From Escherichia coli (lineage in GTDB: Bacteria; Pseudomonadota; Gammaproteobacteria; Enterobacterales; Enterobacteriaceae): a stretch of DNA of 64,000 nt. The position numbers and the translations under genes are program-made. The stretch is from NCBI RefSeq assembly GCF_003018255.1, contig NZ_CP027440.1, one strand, 5' to 3'. Below are positions 1,817-44,542 of this stretch, one piece after another (the stretch's first letter is position 1; every line of letters begins with the position of its first letter). A model generated the notes under the pieces. That model was not told the origin of the DNA. It searched no databases and worked only from the letters and a program-made list of their open reading frames with translations.

Positions 1817-3094
1817 ATGGCTGTGCTGATTTTTCTGGGCTGTCTGTTGGGTGGTATTGCTATCGGTTTGCCTATTGCCTGGGCACTGTTGTTGTGCGGA
1901 GCGGCGTTAATGTTCTGGCTGGACATGTTTGATGTCCAGATCATGGCACAAACGCTGGTGAACGGAGCCGACAGCTTCTCCCTGCTGGCGATTCCGTTCT
2001 TTGTGCTGGCGGGTGAAATCATGAATGCGGGCGGCTTGTCAAAACGCATTGTTGACCTGCCGATGAAACTGGTGGGGCATAAACCTGGCGGGTTGGGCTA
2101 CGTCGGCGTGCTGGCGGCTATGATTATGGCGAGCCTTTCTGGTTCTGCTGTTGCTGATACCGCCGCCGTTGCCGCGCTATTAGTGCCGATGATGCGCAGC
2201 GCTAACTACCCGGTCAACCGGGCTGCGGGGCTGATTGCCTCTGGCGGCATTATCGCGCCAATTATTCCCCCTTCCATTCCGTTTATTATTTTCGGCGTTT
2301 CCAGCGGATTATCCATCAGTAAGCTGTTTATGGCGGGCATTGCCCCTGGCATGATGATGGGCGCAACGCTGATGCTTACCTGGTGGTGGCAGGCCAGTCG
2401 CCTTAATTTACCCCGCCAGCAAAAAGCAACGATGCAGGAAATCTGGCACTCTTTTGTCTCCGGTATCTGGGCGCTGTTTCTTCCAGTCATCATTATTGGC
2501 GGGTTTCGCTCCGGTCTGTTTACCCCTACCGAAGCCGGGGCCGTTGCTGCTTTCTATGCGCTGTTTGTCGCCACAGTTATTTACCGTGAAATGACCTTCG
2601 CCACACTTTGGCATGTGCTCATTGGCGCAGCGAAAACGACCTCAGTGGTGATGTTTCTGGTAGCCTCGGCACAAGTTTCCGCCTGGCTGATCACCATTGC
2701 TGAACTGCCGATGATGGTTTCTGATTTACTGCAACCGCTGGTCGATTCACCGCGTCTGCTGTTTATCGTCATTATGGTGGCTATCCTGATTGTCGGCATG
2801 GTCATGGATTTAACGCCGACGGTATTAATTCTTACCCCGGTATTAATGCCTTTAGTTAAAGAGGCAGGAATCGATCCGATTTATTTCGGTGTCATGTTTA
2901 TCATTAACTGCTCAATCGGCTTAATTACACCGCCTATCGGTAATGTGCTTAACGTTATTTCAGGGGTGGCAAAACTCAAATTCGATGATGCAGTCAGAGG
3001 CGTTTTCCCTTACGTCCTGGTTTTATATTCATTATTAGTCGTATTTGTTTTTATTCCCGATCTCATCATCCTCCCTTTGAAATGGATTAATTAA
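1817..3094 (+). CDS. yiaN: TRAP transporter large permease subunit
   Basis: 425-aa polytopic membrane protein (DctM-like), tightly coupled to yiaM. Confidence 0.85.
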   Translation: MAVLIFLGCLLGGIAIGLPIAWALLLCGAALMFWLDMFDVQIMAQTLVNGADSFSLLAIPFFVLAGEIMNAGGLSKRIVDLPMKLVGHKPGGLGYVGVLAAMIMASLSGSAVADTAAVAALLVPMMRSANYPVNRAAGLIASGGIIAPIIPPSIPFIIFGVSSGLSISKLFMAGIAPGMMMGATLMLTWWWQASRLNLPRQQKATMQEIWHSFVSGIWALFLPVIIIGGFRSGLFTPTEAGAVAAFYALFVATVIYREMTFATLWHVLIGAAKTTSVVMFLVASAQVSAWLITIAELPMMVSDLLQPLVDSPRLLFIVIMVAILIVGMVMDLTPTVLILTPVLMPLVKEAGIDPIYFGVMFIINCSIGLITPPIGNVLNVISGVAKLKFDDAVRGVFPYVLVLYSLLVVFVFIPDLIILPLKWIN

Positions 3095-3106
3095 AAGGAA
3101 AATATT

Positions 3107-4093
3107 ATGAAATTACGCTCTGTAACCTACGCATTATTCATTGCTGGCCTGGCTGCATTTAGTACATCTTCACTGGCGGCGCAATCTTTACGTTTCGGTT
3201 ATGAAACCTCACAAACCGACTCGCAACATATTGCGGCGAAAAAATTCAATGATTTATTGCAGGAGAGAACCAAAGGCGAGCTGAAATTAAAACTGTTCCC
3301 GGACAGTACTCTCGGTAACGCACAGGCGATGATCAGCGGCGTACGTGGCGGCACCATCGATATGGAAATGTCCGGCTCGAATAACTTTGCCGGGTTATCA
3401 CCAGTGATGAACTTGCTTGATGTCCCTTTCCTGTTCCGCGATACCGCTCACGCGCATAAAACGCTCGACGGCAAAGTCGGTGATGATCTGAAAGCCTCAC
3501 TTGAAGGTAAAGGACTAAAAGTACTGGCCTACTGGGAAAACGGCTGGCGCGATGTCACCAACTCGCGCGCACCGGTTAAAACCCCCGCCGACCTGAAAGG
3601 GCTGAAAATTCGCACCAACAATAGCCCGATGAATATCGCCGCATTCAAAGTCTTTGGCGCTAACCCGATCCCGATGCCGTTTGCCGAAGTCTATACCGGG
3701 CTGGAAACGCGCACTATCGACGCTCAGGAACACCCGATCAACGTCGTCTGGTCAGCAAAATTTTTCGAAGTACAGAAGTACCTTTCTCTGACGCACCACG
3801 CCTATTCGCCACTTCTGGTGGTGATCAACAAAGCGAAGTTTGATGGCTTAAGCCCGGAGTTCCAGCAGGCGCTAGTTTCATCTGCACAGGAAGCGGGTAA
3901 CTACCAGCGCAAACTGGTTGCCGAAGATCAGCAAAAAATCATCGACGGCATGAAAGAAGTGGGCGTGGAAGTCATCACCGATCTCGACCGCAAAGCCTTT
4001 AGCGACGCACTGGGTACTCAGGTCCGCGACATGTTTGTTAAAGATGTTCCGCAGGGCGCTGAGCTGCTGAAAGCCGTGGATGAGGTGCAATAA
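3107..4093 (+). CDS. yiaO: TRAP periplasmic solute-binding protein
   Basis: 328 aa with an N-terminal signal peptide (…AAFSTSSLAAQ); DctP-like; sits in the TRAP operon. Confidence 0.85.
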   Translation: MKLRSVTYALFIAGLAAFSTSSLAAQSLRFGYETSQTDSQHIAAKKFNDLLQERTKGELKLKLFPDSTLGNAQAMISGVRGGTIDMEMSGSNNFAGLSPVMNLLDVPFLFRDTAHAHKTLDGKVGDDLKASLEGKGLKVLAYWENGWRDVTNSRAPVKTPADLKGLKIRTNNSPMNIAAFKVFGANPIPMPFAEVYTGLETRTIDAQEHPINVVWSAKFFEVQKYLSLTHHAYSPLLVVINKAKFDGLSPEFQQALVSSAQEAGNYQRKLVAEDQQKIIDGMKEVGVEVITDLDRKAFSDALGTQVRDMFVKDVPQGAELLKAVDEVQ

Positions 4094-6252: not shown

Positions 6253-7105
6253 TCATCCGTTAGGGATTTATGAAAAAGCGCTGGCGAAAGATCTCTCCTG
6301 GCCGGAGCGGCTGGTGCTGGCAAAAAGCTGTGGCTTTGATTTTGTCGAAATGTCGGTGGATGAAACCGACGAACGGCTCTCACGTCTTGACTGGAGCGCC
6401 GCACAACGTGCTTCGCTGGTCACTGCGATGATCGAAACGGGTGTTGGGATCCCGTCGATGTGCCTGTCCGCACATCGTCGCTTTCCTTTTGGTAGCCGTG
6501 ACGAGGCAGTGCGCGAACGGGCGCGGGAAATCATGAGTAAAGCGATTCGCCTGGCGCGCGATCTCGGCATTCGCACCATCCAGCTGGCGGGCTACGACGT
6601 CTATTACGAAGACCACGACGAAGGCACCCGGCAACGTTTTGCTGAAGGGCTGGCGTGGACAGTCGAACAGGCGGCGGCATCACAAGTAATGCTGGCGGTG
6701 GAGATTATGGATACTGCGTTTATGAACTCCATCAGCAAATGGAAAAAGTGGGACGAGATGCTCGCCTCGCCGTGGTTCACCGTCTACCCGGACGTCGGCA
6801 ACCTCAGCGCCTGGGGCAATGATGTTCCCGCCGAACTGAAACTGGGCATTGACCGTATCGCCGCGATCCACCTGAAAGATACTCAACCAGTCACCGAGCA
6901 AAGCCCCGGACAGTTCCGTGATGTGCCGTTTGGCGAAGGCTGCGTCGATTTCGTTGGCATCTTCAAAACGCTGCATGAACTGAACTATCGCGGTTCTTTC
7001 CTGATTGAGATGTGGACCGAAAAAGCCAAAGAGCCGGTGCTGGAGATTATTCAGGCGCGGCGCTGGATTGAAGCGCGTATGCAGGAGGCAGGTTTTATAT
7101 GTTAG
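6239..7105 (+). CDS. sgbU: L-ribulose-5-phosphate 3-epimerase (xylose-isomerase-like TIM barrel)
   Basis: The ORF-track frame 6155..7105 contains …[12 protein letters not shown]…, matching SgbU/UlaE N-termini; the true start is probably a GTG near 6239 overlapping the sgbH end. Exact start uncertain. Confidence 0.8.
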
Positions 7106-7794
7106 AGCAACTGAAAGCCGACGTGCTGGCGGCAAATCTGGCACTTCCCGCTCACCATCTGGTGACGTTCACCTGGGGCAATGTCAGCGCGGTAGACGAA
7201 GCGCGGCAATGGATGGTAATCAAACCTTCCGGCGTCGAGTACGACGTGATGACCGCCGACGATATGGTGGTGGTTGAGATAGCCAGCGGTAAGGTGGTGG
7301 AAGGCAGCAAAAAGCCCTCGTCCGACACGCCAACGCATCTGGCGCTTTACCGTCGCTATGCCGAAATCGGTGGCATTGTGCATACCCACTCGCGCCACGC
7401 CACCATCTGGTCGCAGGCCGGGCTGGATCTCCCCGCCTGGGGCACCACGCACGCCGATTATTTCTATGGTGCCATCCCCTGCACGCGACAGATGACCGCA
7501 GAGGAGATTAACGGCGAATATGAATATCAGACCGGCGAAGTGATCATTGAAACTTTCGAAGAACGCGGCAGGAGTCCGGCACAAATCCCGGCGGTGCTGG
7601 TGCATTCTCACGGCCCGTTCGCCTGGGGAAAAAATGCCGCCGATGCGGTGCATAATGCCGTAGTGCTGGAAGAGTGCGCCTATATGGGCCTGTTCTCGCG
7701 CCAGCTTGCGCCGCAGCTCCCTGCGATGCAAAACGAACTGTTAGATAAGCACTACCTGCGTAAGCATGGGGCCAATGCCTATTACGGGCAGTAA
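7099..7794 (+). CDS. sgbE: L-ribulose-5-phosphate 4-epimerase (class II aldolase/adducin fold)
   Basis: 231 aa, AraD-like sequence, last gene of the operon. Confidence 0.85.
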
Positions 7795-7825
7795 TCCCTC
7801 ACGCCGGGGCTTCATTGCCCCGGCA

Positions 7826-8641
7826 CTACGAATTGATATGTTCCTTGCTGTAACGTCGCTTCCACGCAGCTGGCGTTAAACCGGTGTGTTTGCGAAAAAT
7901 CTGTCGGAAATAGCCAACGTCATTAAACCCGCACAACGCAGCCACTTCAGTGAGCGATCGCGCTTCGCTAATTAACAGCTTTTCGGCTTCGCGCACTCGC
8001 TGGCGATGAATTGCTTCTGTTAACGTCAGATGAAACACCCGCCGGTAGACGCGCCCAAGATAATCGGCATTGCAGTACAGCTCGCGGGCTAAAAGCGCCG
8101 TAGAAAGCGGGCGATGATATTGCGTGCGAATCAGTTTCTGCGCTTTCCAGGCAAGCGTGGTACCTGCGGCATCGGCCTGTTCATCAAGACGCGCGTCACG
8201 GGTGAGCTGCTGCAAAATCAGCAGCACAATAAACTCCAGCGCCGGAGTGCGTTGATGCTTTTCCTGTTCGCTTAAGAACTGGCGAAACAGGGCCACCAGC
8301 GCCTGCGGATCGGCAACCTTCGTTTGTTGCGGCACGCTAAGATGAGTGAGCCAGCGCGGGTCGCTATCCGGCGCTTTAACCTCAAAATGCAGCCAGTAAA
8401 ATTTGAGATCGGCGGGAAAATCCTCTACCCCAACATGCTGTCGGTTCGGCCAGAGTAATAAACTCTCTCCCGCATCGACCAGAAATATCCGCTCTTCTTC
8501 CTGAATCGTTAATCGACCTTTTTCGACAAAGATAATTTCCCATGACTCCAGCCGCCTTGCCGGGTGCCTCCCTACGCCACGGGAAATAAATAATCCACCA
8601 TTTTGCACTTTAATCGGTAACGTCATGGATAATTCGAGCAT
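7826..8641 (-). CDS. AraC/XylS-family transcriptional regulator
   Basis: 271 aa; C-terminal AraC-type HTH region (…EAIHRQRVREAEKLLISEARSLTEVAALCGFNDVGYFRQIFRKHTGLTPAAWKRR), N-terminal cupin-like sensor; divergent from the symporter gene. Confidence 0.8.
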   Translation of the reverse strand: MLELSMTLPIKVQNGGLFISRGVGRHPARRLESWEIIFVEKGRLTIQEEERIFLVDAGESLLLWPNRQHVGVEDFPADLKFYWLHFEVKAPDSDPRWLTHLSVPQQTKVADPQALVALFRQFLSEQEKHQRTPALEFIVLLILQQLTRDARLDEQADAAGTTLAWKAQKLIRTQYHRPLSTALLARELYCNADYLGRVYRRVFHLTLTEAIHRQRVREAEKLLISEARSLTEVAALCGFNDVGYFRQIFRKHTGLTPAAWKRRYSKEHINS

Positions 8642-8866
8642 TGATATGTAATTTCCCGCTTATTCATTAATGATTAAACACATTACCTTTTGATTATTAA
8701 TCAAAAACATTAATTTCACCTGATCCATTTCACACTTTTAAATTCAGGTCGGAATCGTCACCTTTTTTTACTCTTTTCTCGCCTTGTTGATATTCCCGTT
8801 CACGGCAGAATTAATCAGGTCATTGCAATAAAACTAAAAATTGCTCCCTATTCACGAGGAATATCT

Positions 8867-10267
8867 ATGACCTCTACACCGATTACTGCCGCTGATATCG
8901 CTAAAGGTAAAATTGACGATGCGTTATCTGTACGGGAAAAAATAGGCTACGGCCTGGGTGACGCAGGCGGCACCGTAATAACTTGCCTGATCATGAACTT
9001 TCTCACCTTTTTCTACACCGACGTTTTTGGCTTAACTCCGGCGCTGGTCGGCACGCTGTTTATTGCACTGCGCGTGTTTGATGCCATCTCCGACCCGGTG
9101 ATGGGCGTCATTGCCGACCGGACGCAAAGTCGCTGGGGGCGCTTTCGTCCGTGGCAGTTATGGATTGCCATTCCCATCGGCATTATCGGCATCCTGACGT
9201 TCACCGTGCCAGATGCCAGCATGGGAGTAAAAATCGCCTGGGCGTTCGGTACTTACCTGCTCCTTTCAGTCGGTTATACCGCCATCAACGTACCGTACTG
9301 CGCGCTGATCAACACCATGACCACCCGCCACAATGAAGTGATCTCCTGCCAGTCCTGGCGATTCGTTCTCTGCGGCGTAGCGGGATTTCTGGTTTCGGTT
9401 GGCCTGCCGTGGATGGTGGATCTCTTCGGTCAGGGTAATGCCGCGCGCGGCTATCAACTGGGCGTCGGCGTGCTGTGCGCCATTGCCGTGGTGATGTTCC
9501 TGTGCTGTTTCTTCTGGGTTCGTGAACGGGTGCCACTCTCCACAATGGGGAAATTTACCCTGCGCGAACATCTTGCCGGGCTGCGGAACAACGACCAACT
9601 GCTGCTGATGCTGGTCATGTCTTTCCTGCTGATTAACGTCTTTAATATTCGCGGCGGTGGGTATATGTACTTCATTACCTACGTCTTACAAGGCAGTACG
9701 GGCTACACGTCGCTGTTCTTCACCATGGTCACCTTCGCCTCCATTATCGGCTCGGTGATTGTCAGCCCGTTAACGCGGCGTTTCGATACCGTCAAAATTT
9801 ACTACTACACCAACCTGCTCCTCGCTGCGCTGGCGGTGTTGATGTGGTTCCTGCCTTCTGGCCCGGCTTATCAAACGCTGTGGCTGGCGGTGATCCTCGG
9901 TAATGGCGTGATTCTTGGCTTCACATTGCCACTGCACTTCTCATTGATGGCCTTTGCCGATGACTACGGCGAGTGGAAAACCCGCGTACGTTCTTCCGGC
10001 ATGAACTTCGCCTTCAATCTGTTTTTCATCAAGCTGGCATGGGCCTCCAGCGCCGGGATCATCAGCCTGCTGTTTATTTTTGTCGCCTACCAGCCAGGCG
10101 TGGAAAACCAGACCACCAGTTCGCTTGGCGGGATCACGGCGATGGAAACATTACTGCCTGCGCTATTCCACCTGCTGCTGGCAGGGGCGATCCGCTTTTG
10201 CAAACTCAATAACCCTATGATGTCACGCATTGCTAGCGACCTGCGTCAGCGTCATGTACAGCCTTAA
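8867..10267 (+). CDS. GPH-family (MelB-like) glycoside-pentoside-hexuronide:cation symporter
   Basis: 466 aa, 12-TM-like; GPH signature [13 protein letters not shown] near the N-terminus; GAGGA RBS before the ATG. Confidence 0.8.
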
Positions 10268-10277
10268 GGAGCACAAG

Positions 10278-12257
10278 ATGAACATTTCGGAAGTCGATCT
10301 GCATAAACTGACGGTCAGCGATCCGTTCCTCGGTCAGTACCAACAACTGGTCCGCGATGTGGTGATTCCTTATCAGTGGGACGCCTTGAACGATCGTATC
10401 CCAGAAGCGGAACCCAGCCATGCGATTGAAAACTTTCGCATTGCCGCAGGACTGCAAGACGGTGAATTTTACGGGATGGTGTTTCAGGACAGCGACGTCG
10501 CCAAATGGCTGGAAGCGGTAGCCTGGTCGCTGTGCCAGAAGCCGGATGCCGAACTGGAAAAAACCGCTGACGAGGTGATTGAACTGATCGCCTCCGCCCA
10601 GTGCGAAGATGGCTATCTCAATGCTTACTTTACGGTAAAAGCGCCCGAAGAACGCTGGAGCAATCTGGCGGAGTGTCATGAACTTTACTGCGCCGGTCAT
10701 CTGATTGAAGCCGGAGTCGCCTTCTTCCAGGCCACGGGAAAACGGCGCTTGCTGGAAGTGGTTTGCCGTCTGGCCGATCATATCGACAGCGTATTTGGTC
10801 CAGGTGAAAGTAAGTTACACGGTTATCCTGGTCACCCGGAAATTGAACTGGCACTAATGCGCCTGTATGAAGTGACCGAAGAGCCGCGCTACCTGGCGCT
10901 GACGAACTATTTTGTCGAACAGCGTGGTGCGCAACCGCACTATTACGACCAGGAATATGAAAAGCGCGGGCAGACCTCGCACTGGCACACCTACGGCCCG
11001 GCGTGGATGGTGAAAGATAAAGCCTACAGCCAAGCGCATTTGCCCATCGCACAGCAACAAACCGCCATCGGACATACAGTACGCTTTGTATATCTGATGA
11101 CTGGCGTCGCACATCTCGCGCGTTTAAGTCACGATGAAAGCAAGCGTCAGGATTGCCTGCGGCTGTGGAACAATATGGCCCAGCGTCAGTTATATATTAC
11201 CGGCGGCATTGGCTCACAAAGCAGCGGCGAAGCGTTCAGCAGCGATTACGATCTGCCGAATGACACGGTTTACGCCGAAAGTTGTGCTTCCATCGGCCTG
11301 ATGATGTTCGCCCGGCGAATGCTGGAAATGGAAGGCGACAGTCAATATGCCGATGTGATGGAGCGCGCACTGTACAACACTGTGCTCGGCGGCATGGCGC
11401 TGGATGGCAAACATTTCTTCTACGTTAATCCGCTGGAAGTGCATCCAAAAACGTTAAAATTCAACCATATCTACGATCACGTTAAGCCGATCCGCCAGCG
11501 TTGGTTTGGTTGCGCTTGTTGTCCGCCAAATATCGCCCGCGTGCTAACCTCGATTGGTCATTATCTCTACACGCCGCGTGAAGATGCGTTGTATATCAAC
11601 ATCTACGCAGGAAACAGCATGGAAGTGCCGGTAGAAAATGGCACGCTGCGTCTGCGGGTTAGCGGAAACTATCCGTGGCAGGAACAGGTGACAATTGCGG
11701 TTGAATCGCCCCAGCCGGTGCGTCATACGCTGGCTTTACGTCTGCCGGACTGGTGCACACAGCCGCAGATCATATTGAATGGGGAAGAGGTCGAGCAGGA
11801 TATTCGTAAAGGGTATTTGCACATTACCCGCGAATGGCAGGAGGGCGACACGCTGAATCTGACTTTGCCAATGCCGGTACGTCGCGTTTACGGTAACCCT
11901 CTGGTGCGTCACGTCGCCGGAAAAGTGGCGATTCAGCGCGGCCCGCTGGTGTATTGCCTGGAACAGGCCGACAACGGCGAGTCACTGCATAATCTGTGGC
12001 TGCCCGCCGATGCGCCATTTACGACATTTGAAGGTAAGGGATTGTTCCGCCATAAGATCTTAATCCAGGCACCGGGTTATCGGTATGAACAGAGCAATCC
12101 AGAGCAGCAACCGCTGTGGCATTACGACAGCGCGCCAGCCAAACGCCAGCCGCAAACCCTGACCTTTATCCCGTGGTTTAGCTGGGCCAACCGGGGTGAA
12201 GGCGAAATGCGGATCTGGGTGAATGAGGAAAAGCATTGCCATCCGGAGGTTGGATAA
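10278..12257 (+). CDS. GH127-like (DUF1680) glycoside hydrolase, putative beta-L-arabinofuranosidase
   Basis: About 659 aa from the ATG at 10278 (AGGAGC RBS); cysteine cluster WFGCACCPPN resembles the Cys/Zn catalytic site of GH127 HypBA1-type enzymes; no signal peptide. Confidence 0.65.
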   Translation: MNISEVDLHKLTVSDPFLGQYQQLVRDVVIPYQWDALNDRIPEAEPSHAIENFRIAAGLQDGEFYGMVFQDSDVAKWLEAVAWSLCQKPDAELEKTADEVIELIASAQCEDGYLNAYFTVKAPEERWSNLAECHELYCAGHLIEAGVAFFQATGKRRLLEVVCRLADHIDSVFGPGESKLHGYPGHPEIELALMRLYEVTEEPRYLALTNYFVEQRGAQPHYYDQEYEKRGQTSHWHTYGPAWMVKDKAYSQAHLPIAQQQTAIGHTVRFVYLMTGVAHLARLSHDESKRQDCLRLWNNMAQRQLYITGGIGSQSSGEAFSSDYDLPNDTVYAESCASIGLMMFARRMLEMEGDSQYADVMERALYNTVLGGMALDGKHFFYVNPLEVHPKTLKFNHIYDHVKPIRQRWFGCACCPPNIARVLTSIGHYLYTPREDALYINIYAGNSMEVPVENGTLRLRVSGNYPWQEQVTIAVESPQPVRHTLALRLPDWCTQPQIILNGEEVEQDIRKGYLHITREWQEGDTLNLTLPMPVRRVYGNPLVRHVAGKVAIQRGPLVYCLEQADNGESLHNLWLPADAPFTTFEGKGLFRHKILIQAPGYRYEQSNPEQQPLWHYDSAPAKRQPQTLTFIPWFSWANRGEGEMRIWVNEEKHCHPEVG

Positions 12258-34739: not shown

Positions 34740-35040
<301 letters not shown>

Positions 35041-35080
35041 CCAGCCCTCTCGGGTAAAAACATTGATGAAGGTTAATACT

Positions 35081-36229
35081 ATGAAAGCATTACATTTTGG
35101 CGCAGGTAATATCGGTCGTGGCTTTATCGGTAAACTGCTGGCAGACGCGGGTATCCAACTGACGTTTGCCGATGTCAATCAGGTGGTACTTGATGCCCTG
35201 AATGCCCGTCATAGCTATCAGGTTCATGTGGTCGGTGAAACCGAGCAGGCAGATACCGTTTCCGGCGTCAATGCCGTCAGCAGCATTGGTGATGATGTCG
35301 TTGATCTGATTGCTCAGGTTGATTTAGTCACTACCGCCGTTGGCCCGGTTGTGCTGGAACGTATTGCTCCGGCAATCGCCAAAGGGCTGGTGAAACGTAA
35401 AGAACAAGGTAATGAATCCCCGCTGAACATCATCGCTTGTGAAAACATGGTCCGCGGCACCACACAGCTGAAAGGCCATGTGATGAACGCCCTGCCAGAA
35501 GATGCCAAAGCGTGGGTAGAAGAACACGTTGGCTTTGTCGATTCCGCCGTTGACCGCATCGTGCCGCCTTCGGCTTCTGCAACCAACGATCCGCTGGAAG
35601 TGACGGTAGAAACATTCAGCGAATGGATTGTCGATAAAACGCAGTTCAAAGGCGCGCTGCCAAACATCCCTGGCATGGAATTAACCGACAATCTGATGGC
35701 ATTTGTCGAACGTAAACTCTTCACCCTGAATACAGGTCATGCTATAACCGCGTACCTCGGAAAACTGGCCGGTCATCAGACCATTCGTGATGCGATTCTC
35801 GACGAGAAAATCCGCGCGGTGGTAAAAGGTGCGATGGAAGAAAGTGGTGCAGTATTGATCAAGCGCTACGGCTTTGACGCAGACAAACATGCGGCGTACA
35901 TCCGGAAAATCCTCGGTCGTTTCGAGAACCCGTACCTGAAAGATGATGTAGAGCGCGTAGGCCGTCAGCCGCTGCGTAAACTGAGTGCTGGCGACCGTCT
36001 AATCAAGCCACTGCTCGGAACGCTGGAATATGGTCTGCCACATAAAAACCTGATTGAAGGTATTGCCGCTGCAATGCACTTCCGCAGTGAAGATGATCCG
36101 CAGGCTCAGGAACTGGCAGCACTGATCGCTGACAAAGGTCCGCAGGCGGCGCTGGCACAGATTTCCGGTCTTGATGCCAACAGCGAGGTTGTATCCGAGG
36201 CGGTAACCGCTTATAAAGCAATGCAATAA
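35081..36229 (+). CDS. mtlD: Mannitol-1-phosphate 5-dehydrogenase
   Basis: 382 aa from [17 protein letters not shown] (Rossmann motif); the ORF-track frame extends upstream into the REP array. Confidence 0.9.
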
Positions 36230-36816
36230 TGGTGGACCAGGCGCAGGACACCCTGCGCCCGAATAACAGATTGTCAGATATGCAGGCAACAATGGAACAA
36301 ACCCAGGCCTTTGAAAACCGTGTGCTTGAGCGTCTGAATGCTGGCAAAACCGTGCGAAGCTTTCTGATCACCGCCGTCGAGCTTTTGACCGAGGCGGTAA
36401 ATCTTCTGGTGCTTCAGGTATTCCGCAAAGACGATTACGCGGTGAAGTATGCTGTAGAACCGTTACTCGACGGCGACGGTCCGCTGGGCGATCTTTCTGT
36501 GCGTTTAAAACTCATTTACGGGTTGGGCGTCATTAACCGCCAGGAATACGAAGATGCGGAACTGCTGATGGCATTGCGTGAAGAGCTAAATCACGACGGC
36601 AACGAGTACGCGTTTACCGACGACGAAATCCTTGGACCCTTTGGTGAACTGCATTGCGTGGCGGCGTTACCACCGCCGCCACAGTTTGAACCTGCAGACT
36701 CCAGTTTGTATGCAATGCAAATTCAGCGCTATCAACAGGCTGTGCGATCAACAATGGTCCTTTCACTGACAGAGCTGATTTCCAAAATCAGCTTAAAAAA
36801 AGCCTTTCAAAAGTAA
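36229..36816 (+). CDS. mtlR: Mannitol operon repressor
   Basis: 195 aa, [19 protein letters not shown]…; position after mtlD. Confidence 0.85.
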   Translation: MVDQAQDTLRPNNRLSDMQATMEQTQAFENRVLERLNAGKTVRSFLITAVELLTEAVNLLVLQVFRKDDYAVKYAVEPLLDGDGPLGDLSVRLKLIYGLGVINRQEYEDAELLMALREELNHDGNEYAFTDDEILGPFGELHCVAALPPPPQFEPADSSLYAMQIQRYQQAVRSTMVLSLTELISKISLKKAFQK

Positions 36817-36826
36817 GTACTTTCGC

Positions 36827-37036
36827 TTACTTCTCCTCTACCTGTTTCGGACGATAAAGCTGACGATAATACTCCAGACGTTGTAGATATAACGGCACGC
36901 TTTCATCAGGTATTCCGGACGGAATCGCGTTACGGGGAGGTAGTTTTTTCAGATACTCCCGGAACGCCTGGCTCGATGCCATGAAATCTACGGCTTTATC
37001 GATAAGAAGCGGAACGTTTTCACCTAATTTGCCCAT
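36827..37036 (-). CDS. yibT: Small protein YibT
   Basis: 69 aa, convergent with mtlR; matches YibT as recalled. Confidence 0.7.
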
Positions 37037-37319
37037 GATGATATCTCCGTATTACCCCGCGCCGGGAATGCGCGGCCGCCAATTTTAGTTTAGATCCCGG
37101 TATAAATGACATTAAGGAAAACGTGCTCAATCCTCAATAATCACCTGCTTCTGTTGACTATCTTTTTTCTTTAAATTTCTTAATTAATCAATAAATTGCG
37201 TAGTTTTTAAGCATGTTAATGTTTACGTTATAGAACTATTGCAATGTCATCAGTTGTGAACAAAGCACCTGGTCGCGCATACTAGGGGCTATAAATTTAT
37301 CTTTATCAGAAGCCATCAC

Positions 37320-37682
37320 ATGAAAGAAGTCGAAAAAAACGAAATCAAACGTCTCAGCGATCGTCTGGACGCCATCCGCCACCAGCAGGCCGATCTGTCG
37401 CTGGTTGAAGCCGCAGACAAATATGCCGAACTGGAAAAAGAGAAAGCCACTCTGGAAGCAGAAATTGCTCGCCTGCGCGAAGTTCACAGCCAGAAACTCA
37501 GTAAGGAAGCACAAAAGCTGATGAAGATGCCATTCCAGCGCGCGATTACCAAAAAAGAGCAGGCTGATATGGGCAAGCTGAAGAAAAGTGTTCGCGGACT
37601 GGTCGTTGTGCACCCAATGACCGCGCTGGGCCGCGAAATGGGCCTGCAAGAGATGACAGGGTTCTCAAAGACTGCGTTTTAA
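37320..37682 (+). CDS. yibL: Ribosome-associated small protein YibL
   Basis: 120 aa, charged coiled-coil-like protein; matches YibL as recalled. Confidence 0.75.
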
Positions 37683-38240
37683 GTTCCTTTCTCGTCGCTG
37701 TAATCACAGCCTCTCACCATTTACTCGCTCCTGCTGGCACATGCAGGAGCCTGTTTCAGAGATCGAATATTTATAACGTTCTTAACATTATATATTCAAT
37801 CTCCTCTATTCTTTTTAGCGCACATGCCAGGCTAAATTCTGAAAATCAGGTACAAGTTAAAGAACGATGTATCAATATTAACAATGAATTGCCGCATATC
37901 AATGCTTGAAACATAATTAATTATTTAAATTTTTCTATCAGCATCGCAAACTTCGCAATAAAACATCACTCAACTGAATATTTACCTTTCCCTGCCCTGG
38001 GCCTTTATCCGGTGAAACATTTGACATTGATTGACACCGATCATTAAAATCCGCGCGATTAATATTATTGGCTACAAACCGAAATTGTTTGACACTTAAT
38101 AACATATTCGCACAACCGATTAATACAAAAATTCTCTAACAAATTTATTTGTCGGATATGCTCCACTCTAATCATTCATAAAAAAAATGATTGTGCCGTA
38201 ATTATCAACTGTATCGGGATTATGAAAAGGAATTCATCCT

Positions 38241-38924
38241 ATGAACCTAAAGAAAACACTGTTAAGCGTGTTAATAATAGTGCCTCTCTGCTTATTGGCA
38301 GGGTGTGACTATATTGAAAAAGCGAGTAAGGTCGACGACCTCGTTACACAGCAAGAGTTGCAAAAAAGCAAAATTGAGGCGCTTGAGAAACAACAGGAAC
38401 TCGATAAGCGAAAGATAGAACATTTTGAAAAACAACAAACTACTATCATAAATAGTACCAAGACGCTCGCTGGCGTGGTGAAGGCGGTTAAAGACAAACA
38501 GGACGAATTTGTCTTTACAGAATTTAACCCGGCACAAACCCAATACTTCATTTTAAATAACGGCTCTGTTGGTTTGGCAGGCCGGGTGCTGGCTATTGAT
38601 GCAGTTGAAAATGGCAGCGTTATTCGTATTTCGCTGGTTAATTTATTAAGCGTTCCCGTATCAAATATTGGCTTTCATGCGACATGGGGCAATGAAAGGC
38701 CCACCGATGCCAAAGCTCTGGCAAAGTGGCAACAATTACTTTTCAACACCACACTGAATTCCACTCTGCAATTAATGCCTGGTCAATGGCAAGACATTAA
38801 TCTGACATTAAAAGGCGTTTCGCCTAATAACCTGAAGTATCTGAAGTTGTCCATCAATATGGCCAATCTCCAGTTCGACACTGTTCAATCTGCTGAAACT
38901 CGGCAGCGAAAAAACAAAAAATAA
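38241..38924 (+). CDS. Lipoprotein with N-terminal coiled coil, SadB-like (putative partner of the downstream trimeric autotransporter)
   Basis: 227 aa; lipobox LLAGC; coiled-coil segment QQELQKSKIEALEKQQELDKRKIEHFEKQQ followed by a globular domain; 43 bp upstream of the adhesin gene, same strand. Confidence 0.6.
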   Translation: MNLKKTLLSVLIIVPLCLLAGCDYIEKASKVDDLVTQQELQKSKIEALEKQQELDKRKIEHFEKQQTTIINSTKTLAGVVKAVKDKQDEFVFTEFNPAQTQYFILNNGSVGLAGRVLAIDAVENGSVIRISLVNLLSVPVSNIGFHATWGNERPTDAKALAKWQQLLFNTTLNSTLQLMPGQWQDINLTLKGVSPNNLKYLKLSINMANLQFDTVQSAETRQRKNKK

Positions 38925-38967
38925 ATGCAGCTTCTGCGCTTATATCAAGGAATAGAGAGCATCAATA

Positions 38968-41900
38968 ATGAACAAAATTTTTAAAGTTATCTGGAATCCA
39001 GCGACGGGCAGTTACAGCGTTGCCAGCGAAACGGCGAAGAGCCGTGGTAAAAAAAGCGGGCGCAGTAAGCTGTTAATTTCTGTACTAGTTGCGAGTGGGT
39101 TGTTGTCGTCGTTTGGAGCGTTAGCTAATAACTACGACGGGCAGCCAACTGATTATGGCGATGGCTCAGCAGGTGACGGCTGGGTTGCTATCGGTAAAGG
39201 GGCAAAAGCAAATACCTTTATGAACACTAGTGGCGCGAGTACAGCTTTAGGATATGACGCGATAGCCGAAGGTGAGTACAGTTCTGCCATCGGGTCAAAA
39301 ACCCTTGCAACTGGTGGAGCATCCATGGCGTTCGGGGTTAGTGCAAGAGCAATGGGTGACAGAAGTGTCGCGCTGGGTGCATCGTCAGTAGCAAATGGCG
39401 ATCGTTCGATGGCTTTTGGTCGTTACGCAAAGACGAATGGTTATACATCTCTTGCTATTGGGGACTCCTCCCTTGCCGATGGTGAAAAAACTATTGCGTT
39501 AGGAAATACGGCTAAAGCTTACGAAATTATGAGCATCGCCCTCGGTGATCATGCCAATGCGTCAAAAGAATATTCAATGGCGCTGGGTGCAAGTAGTGCC
39601 GCATCTGCGGCTAACGCGATTGCAGTAGGCCGCAACAGTGCTGCAGCTGGCGTAGACAGCCTCGCATTCGGTAGACTATCCGCCGCCAACGCCGCAAACG
39701 CGATTGCTATGGGTGCAGAGAGCAAAGCTGCTGAAAATGCGACGGCAGTTGGTACTAACGCGGAGGCAAATGGACTTAATAGTATCGCGTTGGGCTCCGG
39801 CAGTATTGCAGATGTCGACAACACTATTGCTCTGGGCAATCAAAGTCAGGCAGTAGCGGCTGGCGCAATTGCCATCGGTCAAGGGAATAAAGCTGACGGC
39901 GCAAATGCTATCGCGCTGGGTAATGGTAGTATTACAGGTGGTGTAAATGCTATTGCTCTTGGACAAGGCAGTTATGCCGGTTTAGAAAATGGCACTGCAA
40001 TTGGTGCTCAAGCCAGTGCTCAGGGGAAAAATTCAGTTGCTCTGGGTGCTGGTTCTGTAGCGACTGACGCGGATACTGTTTCTGTGGGTAACACAACAGC
40101 TCAGCGACAAATTGTCAATATGGCAGCAGGTGATATCAGCACTACCAGTACTGATGCCATCAATGGATCACAGCTTTATGCTATCAGTAAGTCAGTAGCG
40201 GACAATCTTGGTGGGGGGGCTACCGTCAATGCGCAAGGCGTCGTTACTTCCCCAAATTACAGGCTGAAAAGTGGTATTTTCGGCACTGTTGGCGACGCCT
40301 TAACGGGCCTGGACAATAATACGTTACAATGGGACTCCCTTAAAAAGGCATATAGTGCGGCACATGGTACAGATACTACCAGTACCATCACCAACGTTAA
40401 AGACGGCGCTATTTCTGATACCAGTAAGGATGCGGTTAACGGTTCTCAGCTGAAAACCACCAACGATAACGTAGCGACCAATACTGCCAATATCACCACC
40501 AACACTAACAGTATCAATACCCTGACGGATTCCGTTGGCGACCTTAAAGACGATGCCCTGCTGTGGAATGGCACCGCGTTCAGCGCCGCGCACGGCACCG
40601 AAGCCACCAGCAAAATCACCAACGTCAAAGACGGTGACCTGACGGCTGGCAGCACCGACGCGGTTAACGGCTCTCAGCTCAAAACCACTAACGATGCCGT
40701 GGCAGCCAACACCACCAATATCGCCACGAACACCACCAACATCACCAACCTGACTGACGCTGTTGACAGTCTCGGTGATGACTCTCTGCTGTGGAATGAT
40801 GCAGCGAAAGCATTCAGTGCCGCTCACGGTACCGATGCCACCAGCAAAATCACTAACGTCAAAGACGGTGACCTGACGGCTGGCAGCACCGACGCGGTTA
40901 ACGGCTCTCAGCTCAAAACCACTAACGATGCCGTGGCAGCCAACACCACCAATATCGCCACGAACACCACCAACATCACCAATCTGACTGACGCTGTTGA
41001 CAGTCTCGGTGATGACTCTCTGCTGTGGAATGATGCAGCGAAAGCATTCAGCGCCGCGCACGGTACTGATGCCACCAGCAAAATCACTAACGTCAAAGAC
41101 GGTGACCTGACGGCTGGCAGCACTGACGCGGTTAACGGCTCTCAGCTCAAAACCACTAACGATGCCGTGGCAGCCAACACCACCAATATCGCCACGAACA
41201 CCACCAACATCACCAACCTGACTGACGCTGTTGACAGTCTCGGTGATGACTCTCTGCTGTGGAATGATGCAGCGAAAGCATTCAGCGCCGCGCACGGTAC
41301 TGATGCCACCAGCAAAATCACTAACGTCAAAGACGGTAACCTGACGGCTGGCAGCACTGACGCGGTTAACGGCTCTCAGCTCAAAACCACTAACGATGCC
41401 GTGGCAGCCAACACCACCAATATCGCCACGAACACCACCAACATCACCAACCTGACTGACGCTGTTGACAGTCTCGGTGACGATTCCCTGCTGTGGAACG
41501 CTACGGCGGGTGCATTCAGTGCCAAACACGGCACCAACGGTACTGACAGCAAAATCACCAACTTACTGGCAGGCACTGTATCCTCTGATAGCACTGACGC
41601 CATTAATGGCTCACAACTTTATGGTTTAGCTGATTCATTTACGTCATACCTTGGCGGTGGTGCTGATATCAGCGATGCGGGTGTATTAACCGGGCCAACC
41701 TACACTATTGGTGGTACTGACTACAATAACGTCGGTGATGCTCTGGCAGCCATTAACACGTCATTTAGCACATCACTCGGTGACGCCCTACTCTGGGATG
41801 CGACCGCCAAGGGCGGTGACGGTGCGTTTAGCGCCGGTCGCGGAAAAGATAACACGGCCAGCATCATTACTAATGTTGCAGACGGTGCAATTTCCTCTAC

Positions 41901-44220
41901 CAGCAGCGACGCTATTAACGGCTCACAGCTCTATGACACCAGTAAGTACATTGCCGATACTCTGGGTGGTGACGCAGAAGTCAATGCTGACGGCACAATC
42001 ACCGCACCGACTTATGCTATCGCTGGCGGCAGTTACAGCAACGTCGGTGACGCGCTGGAAGCAATCGATACCACGCTCGATGACGCTCTGTTGTGGGATG
42101 CCACAGCCAATGATGGTAATGGTGCATTTAGCGCCGCTCACGGAAAAGATAAAACAGCCAGTGTAATCACTAACGTCGCTAACGGTGCAATCTCTGCCAC
42201 CAGCAGCGATGCCATTAACGGTTCACAACTGTATACCACCAACAAGTACATTGCCGATGCCCTGGGTGGTGACGCAGAAGTTAACGCTGATGGTTCTATC
42301 ACTGCGCCGACTTACACCATTGCAAATGCCGAGTACAACAACGTCGGTGACGCCCTGGATGCGCTCGACGATAACGCTCTGCTGTGGGATGCAACGGCCA
42401 ATGACGGCGCAGGTGCCTACAACGCCAGCCATGACGGCAAGGCCAGCATCATCACAAATGTTGCTGATGGTAACATTGGCGAAGGCAGTACCGACGCCAT
42501 CAACGGTTCTCAGCTGTTTAACACCAATATGATGATCCAGCAGAACAGCGAAATCATCAATCAGCTTGCCGGTAACACCAGCGAAACCTACATCGAAGAT
42601 AACGGTGCGGGTATTAACTATGTACGTACCAACGACAACGGCTTAGCGTTCAACGATGCCAGCGCTTCAGGTATTGGCGCTACGGCTGTGGGTTATAACT
42701 CTGTTGCCGAAGGCGATAGCAGCGTAGCCATCGGTCAGGGCAGCTACAGCGACGTTGATACCGGTATTGCCCTGGGTAGCAGCTCCGTTTCCAGCCGTGT
42801 AATAGTTAAAGGTTCTCGTGACACCAGCGTGTCGGAAGAAGGTGTTGTGATTGGTTATGACACCACGGATGGCGAACTACTTGGTGCGCTGTCTATTGGT
42901 GATGACGGTAAATATCGTCAAATCATCAACGTAGCCGATGGTTCCGAAGCCCATGACGCCGTTACGGTTCGCCAGTTGCAAAATGCCATTGGTGCAGTCG
43001 CTACCACGCCGACCAAATACTTCCACGCCAACTCAACGGCTGAAGACTCACTGGCTGTCGGGGAAGACTCGCTGGCGATGGGCGCGAAAACTATCGTCAA
43101 TGGTAATGCGGGTATTGGTATCGGCCTGAATACTCTGGTTCTGGCAGATGCCATCAACGGTATTGCTATCGGTTCTAACGCACGCGCCAACCATGCAAAC
43201 AGTATTGCAATGGGTAATGGTTCTCAGACCACTCGCGGCGCTCAGACTGGCTACACCGCCTACAACATGGATGCACCGCAGAACTCTGTGGGTGAATTCT
43301 CCGTAGGTAGCGAAGACGGTCAACGTCAGATCACCAACGTCGCAGCGGGGTCGGCGGATACCGATGCGGTTAACGTGGGTCAGTTGAAAGTAACGGACGC
43401 GCAGGTTTCCCAGAATACCCAGAGCATTACTAACCTGAATACTCAGGTAACGAATCTGGATACCCGCGTCACCAATATCGAAAACGGTATTGGCGATATC
43501 GTAAGCACCGGTAGCACCAAGTACTTCAAGACCAACACCGATGGCGTAGATGCTAACGCGCAGGGTAAAGACAGTGTTGCGATTGGCTCTGGCTCTATTG
43601 CTGCCGCTGATAACAGCGTTGCGCTGGGTACTGGCTCTGTGGCAAACGAAGAAAATACGATCTCCGTAGGTTCTTCCACTAACCAACGCCGTATCACCAA
43701 CGTTGCCGCTGGTAAAAATGCTACTGACGCGGTTAACGTTGCGCAGTTGAAGTCTTCCGAAGCAGGCGGCGTGCGGTATGACACCAAAGCTGACGGTTCT
43801 GTTGATTACAGCAACATCACTCTCGGCGGTGGTAATGGCGGAACGACTCGCATCAGCAACGTTTCCGCTGGCGTTAACAACAACGACGCGGTGAACTACG
43901 CGCAGTTGAAGCAAAGCGTGCAGGAAACGAAGCAATACACCGATCAGCGCATGGTTGAGATGGATAACAAACTGTCCAAAACCGAAAGCAAGTTGAGCGG
44001 TGGTATCGCTTCTGCAATGGCGATGACCGGTCTGCCGCAGGCTTACACGCCAGGTGCCAGCATGGCCTCTATTGGTGGCGGTACTTACAACGGTGAATCG
44101 GCTGTTGCTTTAGGTGTGTCGATGGTGAGCGCCAATGGTCGTTGGGTCTACAAATTACAAGGTAGTACCAATAGCCAGGGTGAATACTCCGCCGCGCTCG
44201 GTGCCGGTATTCAGTGGTAA
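38968..44220 (+). CDS. upaG: Trimeric autotransporter adhesin (UpaG/EhaG/SadA family)
   Basis: 1750 aa; extended signal peptide region [20 protein letters not shown]…; YadA-like head repeats (…SIALGxGS…); long repetitive stalk; C-terminal YadA-type anchor ending …[13 protein letters not shown]. Symbol assigned by family and position only. Confidence 0.8.
40549..41478 (+). repeat. Tandem array of about four 234-bp (78-aa) repeats inside the adhesin stalk; copies 2-4 near-identical
   Basis: Unit [78 protein letters not shown] recurs with starts near 40777, 41011 and 41245 (period 234 bp); more diverged copies flank it. Confidence 0.85.
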
Positions 44221-44252
44221 TCATCCATTAACGAATGGGTAAACGCCACATT

Positions 44253-44337
44253 GCCTGATGCGCTACGCTTATCAGGCCTACGGGGTGATTCAGCACTACC
44301 CTGTAGGCCGGATAAGGCGTTCACGCCGCATCCGGCA
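44253..44337. repeat. BIME (pair of inverted REP elements) downstream of the adhesin gene
   Basis: gcctgatgcgctacgcttatcaggcctac … gtaggccggataaggcgttcacgccgcatccggca. Confidence 0.7.
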
Positions 44338-44416
44338 AGATAAGGCGCACCAGATCAACAATCTGAGGGCAATTCTCTGATGGGAATTGCCCTTTTCTTC
44401 ATTACCTCTCTCCCAG

Positions 44417-44433
44417 AATTGGCCCTACCAATT
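44417..44433. promoter_or_regulatory. Putative LldR operator O1 (palindrome AATTGGCCCTACCAATT)
   Basis: Perfect 17-bp palindrome about 200 bp upstream of the lldP start; a second related site lies about 126 bp downstream, matching my recollection of the two-operator lldPRD promoter. Confidence 0.5.
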
Positions 44434-44542
44434 CTTCATTGATCTGACCTCTGGTTCACAATTCCCCAATTAAAACTCACATCACCGTTGCCAATACATA
44501 ACATCTAGTTAACTATTCATTGTCATTATCCCTACACAACAC

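Follow-up and report, generated by a model that had tools for sequence, protein, structure and literature searches.

The interval between yibL and lldP in Escherichia coli contig NZ_CP027440.1 (assembly GCF_003018255.1) holds a lipoprotein gene and a gene for a giant trimeric autotransporter adhesin, and the question that it raises is whether these two form a functional pair of the kind known from Salmonella as sadB-sadA. The window, that is the whole stretch of DNA that was analysed, comprises 64,000 nucleotides (nt) around this interval. An initial annotation, made from the letters and the translations, had described the pair as an operon that mirrors sadB-sadA behind a 558-bp AT-rich leader; its coordinates, with the lipoprotein gene 43 bp before the adhesin gene and 558 bp upstream of the pair, agree exactly with the list of open reading frames (ORFs). 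From homology, fold, gene order and conservation, the locus is very probably orthologous to the sadBA operon of Salmonella, with an adhesin allele of the UpaG type.

Both genes lie on the plus strand and start with ATG. The yibL gene ends at 37682 and is followed by the 558 bp of intergenic DNA (37683..38240), while the gap between the lipoprotein and adhesin genes (38925..38967) measures 43 bp; the lipoprotein gene has a GC content of 41.5% and the adhesin gene one of 52.4%. Over 7.35 kb that include the locus, the window and the chromosome of E. coli JNE112863 are 100% identical, and the segment is thus genuine chromosomal sequence and not an artefact. In that genome the two genes are annotated as "DUF3251 domain-containing protein" and "YadA-like family protein", with mtlA-mtlD-mtlR-yibT-yibL on one flank and lldP-lldR-lldD on the other. 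The allele of the window, defined by at least 99% identity over 7.35 kb, is present in 77 records. The coding features are the following.

38241..38924, plus strand: sadB orthologue encoding a predicted inner-membrane lipoprotein of 227 amino acids (aa), recognised by the match to PDB 4C47, by Foldseek and by the lipobox; in its product a signal peptide (1-21) precedes Cys22 and Asp23, residues 31-90 make up a coiled coil of about 9 heptads, and the C-terminal part (about 95-215) is a beta-sandwich.
38968..44220, plus strand: gene for a UpaG-type trimeric autotransporter adhesin of 1750 aa, with Pfam matches to ESPR, YadA_head, YadA_stalk and YadA_anchor and matches to the SadA fragments 2YO0, 2YO3, 2YNZ and 2YO2.
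38968..39126, plus strand: ESPR and signal peptide of the adhesin, aa 1-53 (PF13018 at residues 1-48, E 3.4e-15).
39127..40107, plus strand: distal YadA-like head, aa 54-380 (13 YadA_head repeat matches).
40612..41547, plus strand: four tandem stalk units of 234 bp (78 aa), residues 549-860 (Tandem Repeats Finder: period 234, 3.9 copies, 97% matches).
42568..44034, plus strand: the conserved part of the stalk next to the membrane (aa 1201-1689), which also contains further head inserts, necks and coiled coils.
44035..44217, plus strand: YadA-type beta-barrel anchor, aa 1690-1750, ending in ...GIQW (PF03895 positions 1-60 of 60, E 2.4e-19).

Comparison of the lipoprotein with all PDB sequences (phmmer) gave one match only, 4C47, which is Salmonella SadB (E 7e-69). 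The alignment covers residues 23-227 without gaps and contains 108 identical positions out of 205 (53%), the coiled coil being 46% and the C-terminal domain 56% identical. An AlphaFold2 model built from 22 homologues consists of a helix (3-88) followed by a beta-sandwich, at medium confidence (predicted local distance difference test, pLDDT, 68.6), and Foldseek against the PDB ranked the three chains of 4C47 first (E 1e-19), then YajI (2JWY, 6e-5) and after these the MATH domains. The ranking contains the same set of relatives as was reported for SadB by Grin et al. (PMC3953254). Both searches confirm the SadB-like nature that the initial annotation had attributed to the protein. Its N-terminus, MNLKKTLLSVLIIVPLCLLAGC followed by D, is a lipobox with Cys22 and Asp23; it may also be written MNLKKTLLSVLIIVPLCLLAG-C22-D23, where ...LLAG precedes C22. 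An Asp at position +2 of the lipobox is a signal for retention in the inner membrane, and G21, C22 and D23 are invariant in the 22 homologues. The heptad register over residues 31-90 has V,Q,I,Q,I,Q,T,V,Q at the a positions, all as in SadB, and L,Q,L,D,F,I,L,V,F at the d positions, as compared to M,Q,L,Q,L,I,V,V,F in SadB.

For Salmonella SadB, Grin et al. (2014, PMC3953254) described a trimeric coiled coil of nine heptads, the Asp at +2 of the lipobox, and an inner-membrane trimer that enhances the display of SadA. The gain in SadA display with SadB was threefold in another study (PMC11054257), and improved protease resistance was likewise found in Salmonella. The SadB family is small: an exhaustive search through 1.84 billion cluster representatives returned 88 matches at E <= 0.001. 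Two distant full-length SadB-like representatives (P0132 and P0133) were examined and neither adjoins an adhesin gene, so that they do not extend the pairing beyond the enterobacteria; this is consistent with the published statement that operons of the sadBA type are confined to that group (PMC3953254). RefSeq names the lipoprotein either DUF3251 or 'SadB/YajI family lipoprotein', and the family is apparently absent from the profile libraries searched. The gene that is labelled "DUF3251" or "hypothetical" at this locus can safely be named sadB.

The domain annotation by Pfam found an ESPR, head repeats and a YadA anchor in the adhesin, and the trimeric autotransporter architecture noted in the initial annotation was recovered in full. 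The ESPR/signal region is 89-94% identical among E. coli alleles, and by the AXA rule the signal peptide would be cleaved after ALA53. The distal head is the most variable part of the protein (37-79% identity to other E. coli alleles). Its YadA_head repeats occupy residues 91-375, and further ones appear near 1233-1259, 1393-1419 and 1526-1570, giving more than 20 matches in all; in addition, Pfam reported 16 YadA_stalk/neck matches, and regular expressions counted 13 necks, 8 DALL-like motifs and 5 motifs of the form LGG[GD] (FGG-like). Each of the 78-aa units in the stalk is composed of a neck, a coiled-coil segment and a DALL-like motif. Copies 1-3 of the 234-bp repeat encode identical peptides and differ by 2-5 nt, and copy 4 differs by ca. 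24 nt.

Towards the membrane the conservation rises. The proximal stalk is 92-97% identical across E. coli alleles, and the membrane-proximal 450 residues align closely with the Salmonella SadA crystal fragments 2YO0 (E 2e-140) and 2YO3 (E 6e-92). The anchor matches the Hia anchor structures 3EMO and 2GR7 and is 100% identical to the anchors of UpaG and EhaG; a trimer with a 12-stranded barrel would be expected from membership of the family. By position and alignment, the protein is classed as a UpaG-type allele within the SadA/UpaG/EhaG group of positional orthologues, with a variable distal passenger. Such variability is known for this group (PMC7247748), and the combination of a conserved proximal stalk and anchor with a variable head fits a conserved export module that carries a diversifying binding module. 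The functions of UpaG and EhaG, which are functional when expressed, include matrix and cell binding, aggregation and biofilm formation, as summarised in the same source. The adhesin gene also contains long antisense ORFs, at 40324..41529 (minus strand, 401 aa) and 43048..43935 (minus strand, 295 aa), which most likely owe their existence to the repetitive coding sequence, rich in Ala, Gly, Asn and Thr. A published antisense gene of O157 ehaG, oloz5029 (2614..3165 in locus L003), was considered and rejected, as the corresponding region here is 53% similar at the protein level and has no intact ORF of comparable length.

The gene order mtlADR-yibT-yibL-sadB-adhesin-lldP is also found in CFT073, O157, a lineage of Salmonella enterica, Pseudocitrobacter vendiensis and E. 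fergusonii. Across the loci that share this order the gap between sadB and the adhesin gene is 43-44 nt, and the adhesins range from 1447 to 2044 aa. With the same synteny in Salmonella, E. fergusonii and Pseudocitrobacter, the relation of the window locus to sadB-sadA can be regarded as orthology and goes beyond the resemblance that had been noted at the outset; the proposed pairing is borne out. Conservation of the lipoprotein gene upstream of the adhesin gene in Escherichia and Shigella was described by Grin et al. (2014, PMC3953254).

The initial annotation had further noted that K-12 lacks the adhesin between yibL and lldP. In a K-12-type genome (O16:H48) the gap between these genes is indeed just 371 bp. 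Its sequence follows the window for only 4 nt beyond the stop codon of yibL, continues with about 10 nt of filler and rejoins the window within a repetitive extragenic palindromic (REP) element at about 44279; with a junction that runs from 4 nt after the yibL stop to this point, K-12 is without ca. 6.6 kb, comprising the upstream region, sadB and the adhesin gene. The deletion at this locus was also reported by Grin et al. (2014, PMC3953254). The wider distribution was counted in 5426 complete E. coli genomes by megablast, and the counts are therefore approximate. A UpaG-type sadB was found in 1878 of them and an EhaG-type sadB (at least 95% identical) in about 2270, and the empty junction of the K-12 type occurs in 1261 (ca. 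23%). These three classes add up to nearly all 5426 genomes, and the locus is present in about three quarters. Broken alleles were also noticed: the adhesin gene of WB61 (7228..10605 in locus L009) is a truncated or partial pseudogene, and IS1 insertions lie in the adhesin gene or sadB of other genomes (H13, H19 and H86).

In the DNA around the pair, the following features were recognised.

37683..38020, no strand assigned: AT-rich upstream regulatory DNA, a presumed H-NS target (GC 32-36% as compared to 51.5% for the window).
37727..37750, plus strand: hairpin after the yibL stop codon, CUCCUGCU-loop-GCAGGAG and then CCUGUUUC (RNA folding).
37836..37845, no strand assigned: invariant box ATTCTGAAAA, the top 10-mer of the seven-locus alignment described below (conservation 0.94), about 175 bp upstream of the -35 element.
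38021..38050, plus strand: predicted sigma-70-type promoter, TTGACA-18 nt-TAAAAT, the best consensus match of the region (11/12).
38051..38240, plus strand: inferred 5' untranslated region (UTR) of ca. 185 nt, with the Shine-Dalgarno sequence AAGGA at 38227..38231, 9 nt before the ATG.
38925..38967, plus strand: spacer of 43 nt with the ribosome-binding region of the adhesin gene, CAAGGAATAGAGAGCATCAATA-ATG, recognised by conservation across loci.
44251..44338, no strand assigned: pair of REP elements (bacterial interspersed mosaic element, BIME) downstream of the adhesin gene (fold -56 kcal/mol, z = -5.9).
44365..44394, plus strand: intrinsic terminator with a 13-bp stem followed by UUUUCUU (terminator scan; fold z = -5.4).

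Within the spacer between the two genes, RNA folding gave no significant structure (z = 0.25) and no terminator was detected. The conservation of this spacer and its lack of structure over 43-44 nt, together with the position of the strong terminator only after the adhesin gene, support the prediction that sadB and the adhesin gene are a single transcription unit; for Salmonella sadBA, co-transcription has been hypothesised (PMC3953254). The terminator at 44365..44394 is retained in K-12, where it stands behind yibL. Further downstream, a perfect inverted repeat (GAATTGG-CCCTA-CCAATTC, 44416..44434) lies upstream of lldP. It resembles an operator of the LldR/PdhR type and presumably belongs to the regulation of lldP, not to the adhesin operon.

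The upstream region was compared in a yibL-sadB intergenic alignment of seven loci from four genera (the window, CFT073, O157, AZ153, E. fergusonii, Pseudocitrobacter and Salmonella). The mean column identity is 59%, and the window is 43-56% identical to O157, E. fergusonii, Pseudocitrobacter and Salmonella. Three 10-mers alone rise above this background: ATTCTGAAAA at 37836..37845, ACATTTGACA at 38017..38026 and TCATTAAAAT at 38041..38050. The second and third most conserved blocks, TTTGACA and ATTA..AT, are invariant in all seven loci and coincide with the -35 and -10 elements of the best sigma-70 consensus match, which is why the core promoter is placed at 38021..38050. Transcription would then start near 38057. 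In the predicted 5' UTR, RNA folding gave no significant structure (z = -1.05); a scan of 36800-39100 against Rfam returned no known RNA family but a chance match to U4 (E 0.65), and none of the small ORFs upstream of sadB is credible. The ATTCTGAAAA/ATTCTGAAAAT box recurs elsewhere in the window only at chance level, and no transcription-factor consensus was recognised in it.

Immediately after yibL, the segment 37683-37770 folds with -26.6 kcal/mol (z = -3.6), and the hairpin at 37727..37750 is conserved in the UpaG-type loci, the Pseudocitrobacter version having a different loop. It is probably a weak terminator of yibL, which the terminator scan did not call because its U-tract is poor. 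The initial description of the 558 bp as an AT-rich leader thus holds for the base composition, 35% GC as compared to 51.5% for the window (35.1% for 37683..38240 and 32.2% for 37760..38240), but not for the transcribed leader. Given the position of the conserved promoter, about 340 bp would be upstream and promoter DNA, including the yibL hairpin, and only the ca. 185 nt of the 5' UTR would be transcribed with sadB. The region is one of about 15 patches of low GC in the 64-kb window and not the most extreme. Repression of UpaG by H-NS is stated in PMC5012682, with reference to Totsika 2012, and silencing of the window allele by H-NS is a reasonable expectation by analogy.

The 43-nt spacer is much more conserved than either flanking gene. 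It is 100% identical in three UpaG-type loci (L004, L005 and L006) and in CFT073, and it matches the window at 39 of 43 positions in Salmonella and at 42 of 43 in Pseudocitrobacter. At the 4-fold degenerate sites of sadB the matches are 27/53 and 32/59, respectively, so that the excess in the spacer has a binomial P of 3e-8 for Salmonella and 1e-10 for Pseudocitrobacter. Its core, GCTTATAT(C/A)AAGGAATAGAGAGCA, is kept even beside a SadB variant of 61% identity. In the RNAalifold prediction, a weak hairpin that lacks covariation carries CAAGGA in its loop. The adhesin gene has another invariant GGA among its ESPR codons, 25 nt into the coding region (38968..39000). One may speculate that the two resemble a site of the CsrA type; no report linking CsrA to sadA or upaG was found in the literature. 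That the spacer and the first adhesin codons constitute a conserved element of post-transcriptional control and that, separately, ATTCTGAAAA is the operator of a factor that relieves silencing by H-NS is a tentative proposal, which we consider possible though unlikely. If it were true, a site for CsrA or a small RNA could gate translation of the adhesin or set the SadB:adhesin ratio. A scan of genome contigs for the exact spacer pattern, which is too strict, yielded only 4 loci. Two of these are E. coli-like contigs binned into metagenome-assembled genomes of Firmicutes, L016 ('Oscillospiraceae'), with an E. coli-type sadB-adhesin-lldP segment, a 1447-aa adhesin and a 226-aa SadB, and L019 ('Bacillota'), with the same spacer pattern; both are probably binning contamination.

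Other explanations of the locus have to be weighed against an orthologous sadBA operon. One might read the 558 bp as a true transcribed leader after all, with transcription entering from yibL or beginning at a promoter near 37700-37900, and with a regulatory role as a long AT-rich 5' UTR. Such a leader would suit the poor U-tract of the yibL hairpin, where no terminator was called, a weaker promoter-like site at 37889..37917 and the location of the top conserved box, ATTCTGAAAA, far upstream of the proposed promoter. We nevertheless find it decidedly unlikely: the only promoter elements conserved over the four genera are the -35 and -10 at 38021..38050, the rest of the region shows the low identity to O157, E. 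fergusonii, Pseudocitrobacter and Salmonella (43-56%) that is typical of non-transcribed spacer or binding-site DNA, and neither a structure by RNA folding nor a family in the Rfam scan was found. It is very unlikely that in this strain the locus is a cryptic one in decay, with genes intact by chance, never usefully expressed, and a pair without present function. Loss by deletion in ca. 23% of the complete E. coli genomes and the existence of broken versions (the sadB stop of avian pathogenic E. coli (APEC) O18, the truncated adhesin of WB61 and the IS1 insertions) could be taken that way, but a 5.25-kb ORF without a stop, the conservation of the anchor (100%) and proximal stalk (92-97%), the intact lipobox and purifying selection on spacer and promoter across genera are at odds with decay, as is the finding that UpaG and EhaG are functional when expressed (PMC7247748).

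Two more possibilities concern the role of the lipoprotein and the history of the locus. The lipoprotein could be an independent YajI-like periplasmic protein that neighbours the adhesin by chance and has no role in its export, as might be argued from the paralogue YajI and the distant homologues elsewhere, which do not adjoin adhesins, and from the surface display that occurs to some extent without SadB (PMC3953254). With the genes adjacent at a constant 43-44 nt in four of the four genera examined and lost together in K-12, and with two independent Salmonella studies in which SadB raises the display of SadA (PMC3953254, PMC11054257), this is extremely improbable. Nor is it credible, save at very long odds, that a genomic island entered a K-12-like yibL-lldP junction by horizontal transfer, in place of an ancestral locus that K-12 lost. 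Salmonella, E. fergusonii and Pseudocitrobacter carry these genes at the corresponding site, there is no integrase, tRNA or direct-repeat border, and the break in K-12 falls inside a REP element with about 10 nt of filler beside it, the pattern that a deletion would give. The low GC of the promoter region and sadB would agree with acquisition, and so would the mosaic alleles, among which UpaG-type and EhaG-type SadB are only 66% identical and the intergenic regions barely align; the mosaicism is, however, accounted for by allele exchange through homologous recombination.

Some observations count against the assignment as an orthologous, co-expressed sadBA operon or narrow what it implies. The Pfam-A and NCBIfam scans of the lipoprotein gave no match, and because of this the assignment as SadB rests on the sequence and fold matches in the PDB. 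Trimerisation of the lipoprotein is suggested by the conserved heptad core, and the AlphaFold2 model is monomeric and of medium confidence. For the window allele, the transcription start, co-transcription and H-NS binding are predictions. The high-affinity motif of H-NS has 1 match with at most 2 mismatches in the 558 bp, as compared to 1.1 per kb over the whole window. SadB is furthermore not strictly required: SadA reaches the surface without it, at a lower level (PMC3953254), and sadB of APEC O18 (7001..7684 in locus L004) has a premature stop at E53 (GAA to TAA) next to an intact gene for a 1583-aa adhesin. APEC O18 is a natural sadB-null background, and several records at the same identity level label the sadB gene 'hypothetical'.

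For the orthologous sadBA operon that we favour, the gene anatomy, homology, fold, synteny, absence from K-12 and promoter conservation are established here, and we infer co-transcription, H-NS silencing, the helper function of SadB and adhesion from published work on the orthologues. The sigma-70 promoter at 38021..38050, embedded in AT-rich DNA that is reportedly silenced by H-NS in strains with UpaG or EhaG, would drive one transcript that covers sadB, the terminator-free 43-nt spacer and the 5.25-kb adhesin gene and ends at 44365..44394. SadB would be exported, lipidated on Cys22 and kept in the inner membrane by Asp23, and a SadB trimer formed through the nine-heptad coiled coil would present three beta-sandwich domains in the periplasm. 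The adhesin is expected to pass the inner membrane via Sec with its extended signal peptide, after which Bam would insert three chains as a 12-stranded barrel of the YadA type. The passenger would then be threaded out with the C-terminal stalk first and give a long fibre of heads, necks and stalks that may mediate adhesion, aggregation and biofilm formation. SadB would raise the amount and integrity of the displayed fibre, probably by keeping the three chains associated and in register while they are unfolded. An in-register role was proposed for SadB by Grin et al. (PMC3953254), and it is plausible here because the adhesin stalk has three perfect 78-aa repeats.

Elsewhere in the window, repeated REP-like sequences between mtlA and mtlD (34756..35178) yield spurious ORFs with duplicated peptide segments. 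A core protein of the rearrangement hot spot (RHS) type of 1344 aa is encoded at 24916..28950 (NF041261, 2458 bits). The DNA behind it has the lowest GC content of the window (22-30%, within 28451..30801) and presumably comprises the variable toxin tip, an immunity gene and an orphan region.

The pair belongs to a group of systems that has been worked on for some time; Valle is said to have treated UpaG in 2008, Totsika EhaG/UpaG and H-NS in 2012, and Hartmann the fibre structures, also in 2012. Both UpaG and EhaG act in adhesion and biofilm formation and are candidates for vaccines. The system as such is known, as the pairing, its conservation in Escherichia and the deletion in K-12 were all published in 2014 by Grin et al. 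and the genes are annotated in RefSeq; the window adds one more UpaG-type allele and no new kind of system. What it does permit is the placement of the core promoter by phylogenetic footprinting. The residual novelty is limited to two short conserved non-coding elements, the spacer and the ATTCTGAAAA box, both unreported before, which might help to explain when a normally silent operon switches on.

The closest of the known systems is that of CFT073 (upaG, C_RS20895; lipoprotein gene, C_RS20890), which has the same chromosomal site and gene order. Its upstream region is 93% identical to that of the window, the 43-nt spacer is the same and SadB is 88% identical. UpaG of CFT073 (1778 aa) and the window adhesin (1750 aa) are ca. 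85% identical overall, with 92% in the ESPR, 68% in the head, 57-82% in the stalk, 96% in the proximal stalk and 100% in the anchor. The first stalk segment is the one at only 57%, and the window allele has three perfect 78-aa stalk repeats, unlike UpaG of CFT073; in RefSeq it carries just the label 'YadA-like family protein'. EhaG of O157:H7 is a positional orthologue and shares the architecture of the window adhesin. It is shorter (1588 aa) and is 89% identical in the ESPR, 64% in the head, 59-78% in the stalk, 92% in the proximal stalk and 100% in the anchor. SadB of O157 has 222 aa and is 66% identical to that of the window, and the upstream region is essentially unalignable except for the promoter blocks.

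Similar to these E. coli loci, SadB-SadA of Salmonella enterica is an orthologous operon between mtl and lld with a spacer of 43-44 nt. The Salmonella SadB of known structure (4C47, 53% identical) shares the lipobox, heptad core and fold with the protein of the window, whereas SadA of Typhimurium (1461 aa) differs from the window adhesin in the distal passenger and matches it closely in the proximal stalk. The E. coli lipoprotein YajI, second-best fold match to the window lipoprotein, possesses a paralogous beta-sandwich C-domain (2JWY); its identity is ca. 17%, and it is unlinked to any autotransporter (PMC3953254). Apart from SadB, the only dedicated helper described for a trimeric autotransporter adhesin is TpgA, which serves AtaA in Acinetobacter sp. 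Tol 5. TpgA is unrelated to SadB: it consists of a BamE-like domain and an OmpA-like peptidoglycan-binding domain and is located at the outer membrane and peptidoglycan, in contrast to a trimeric lipoprotein of the inner membrane.

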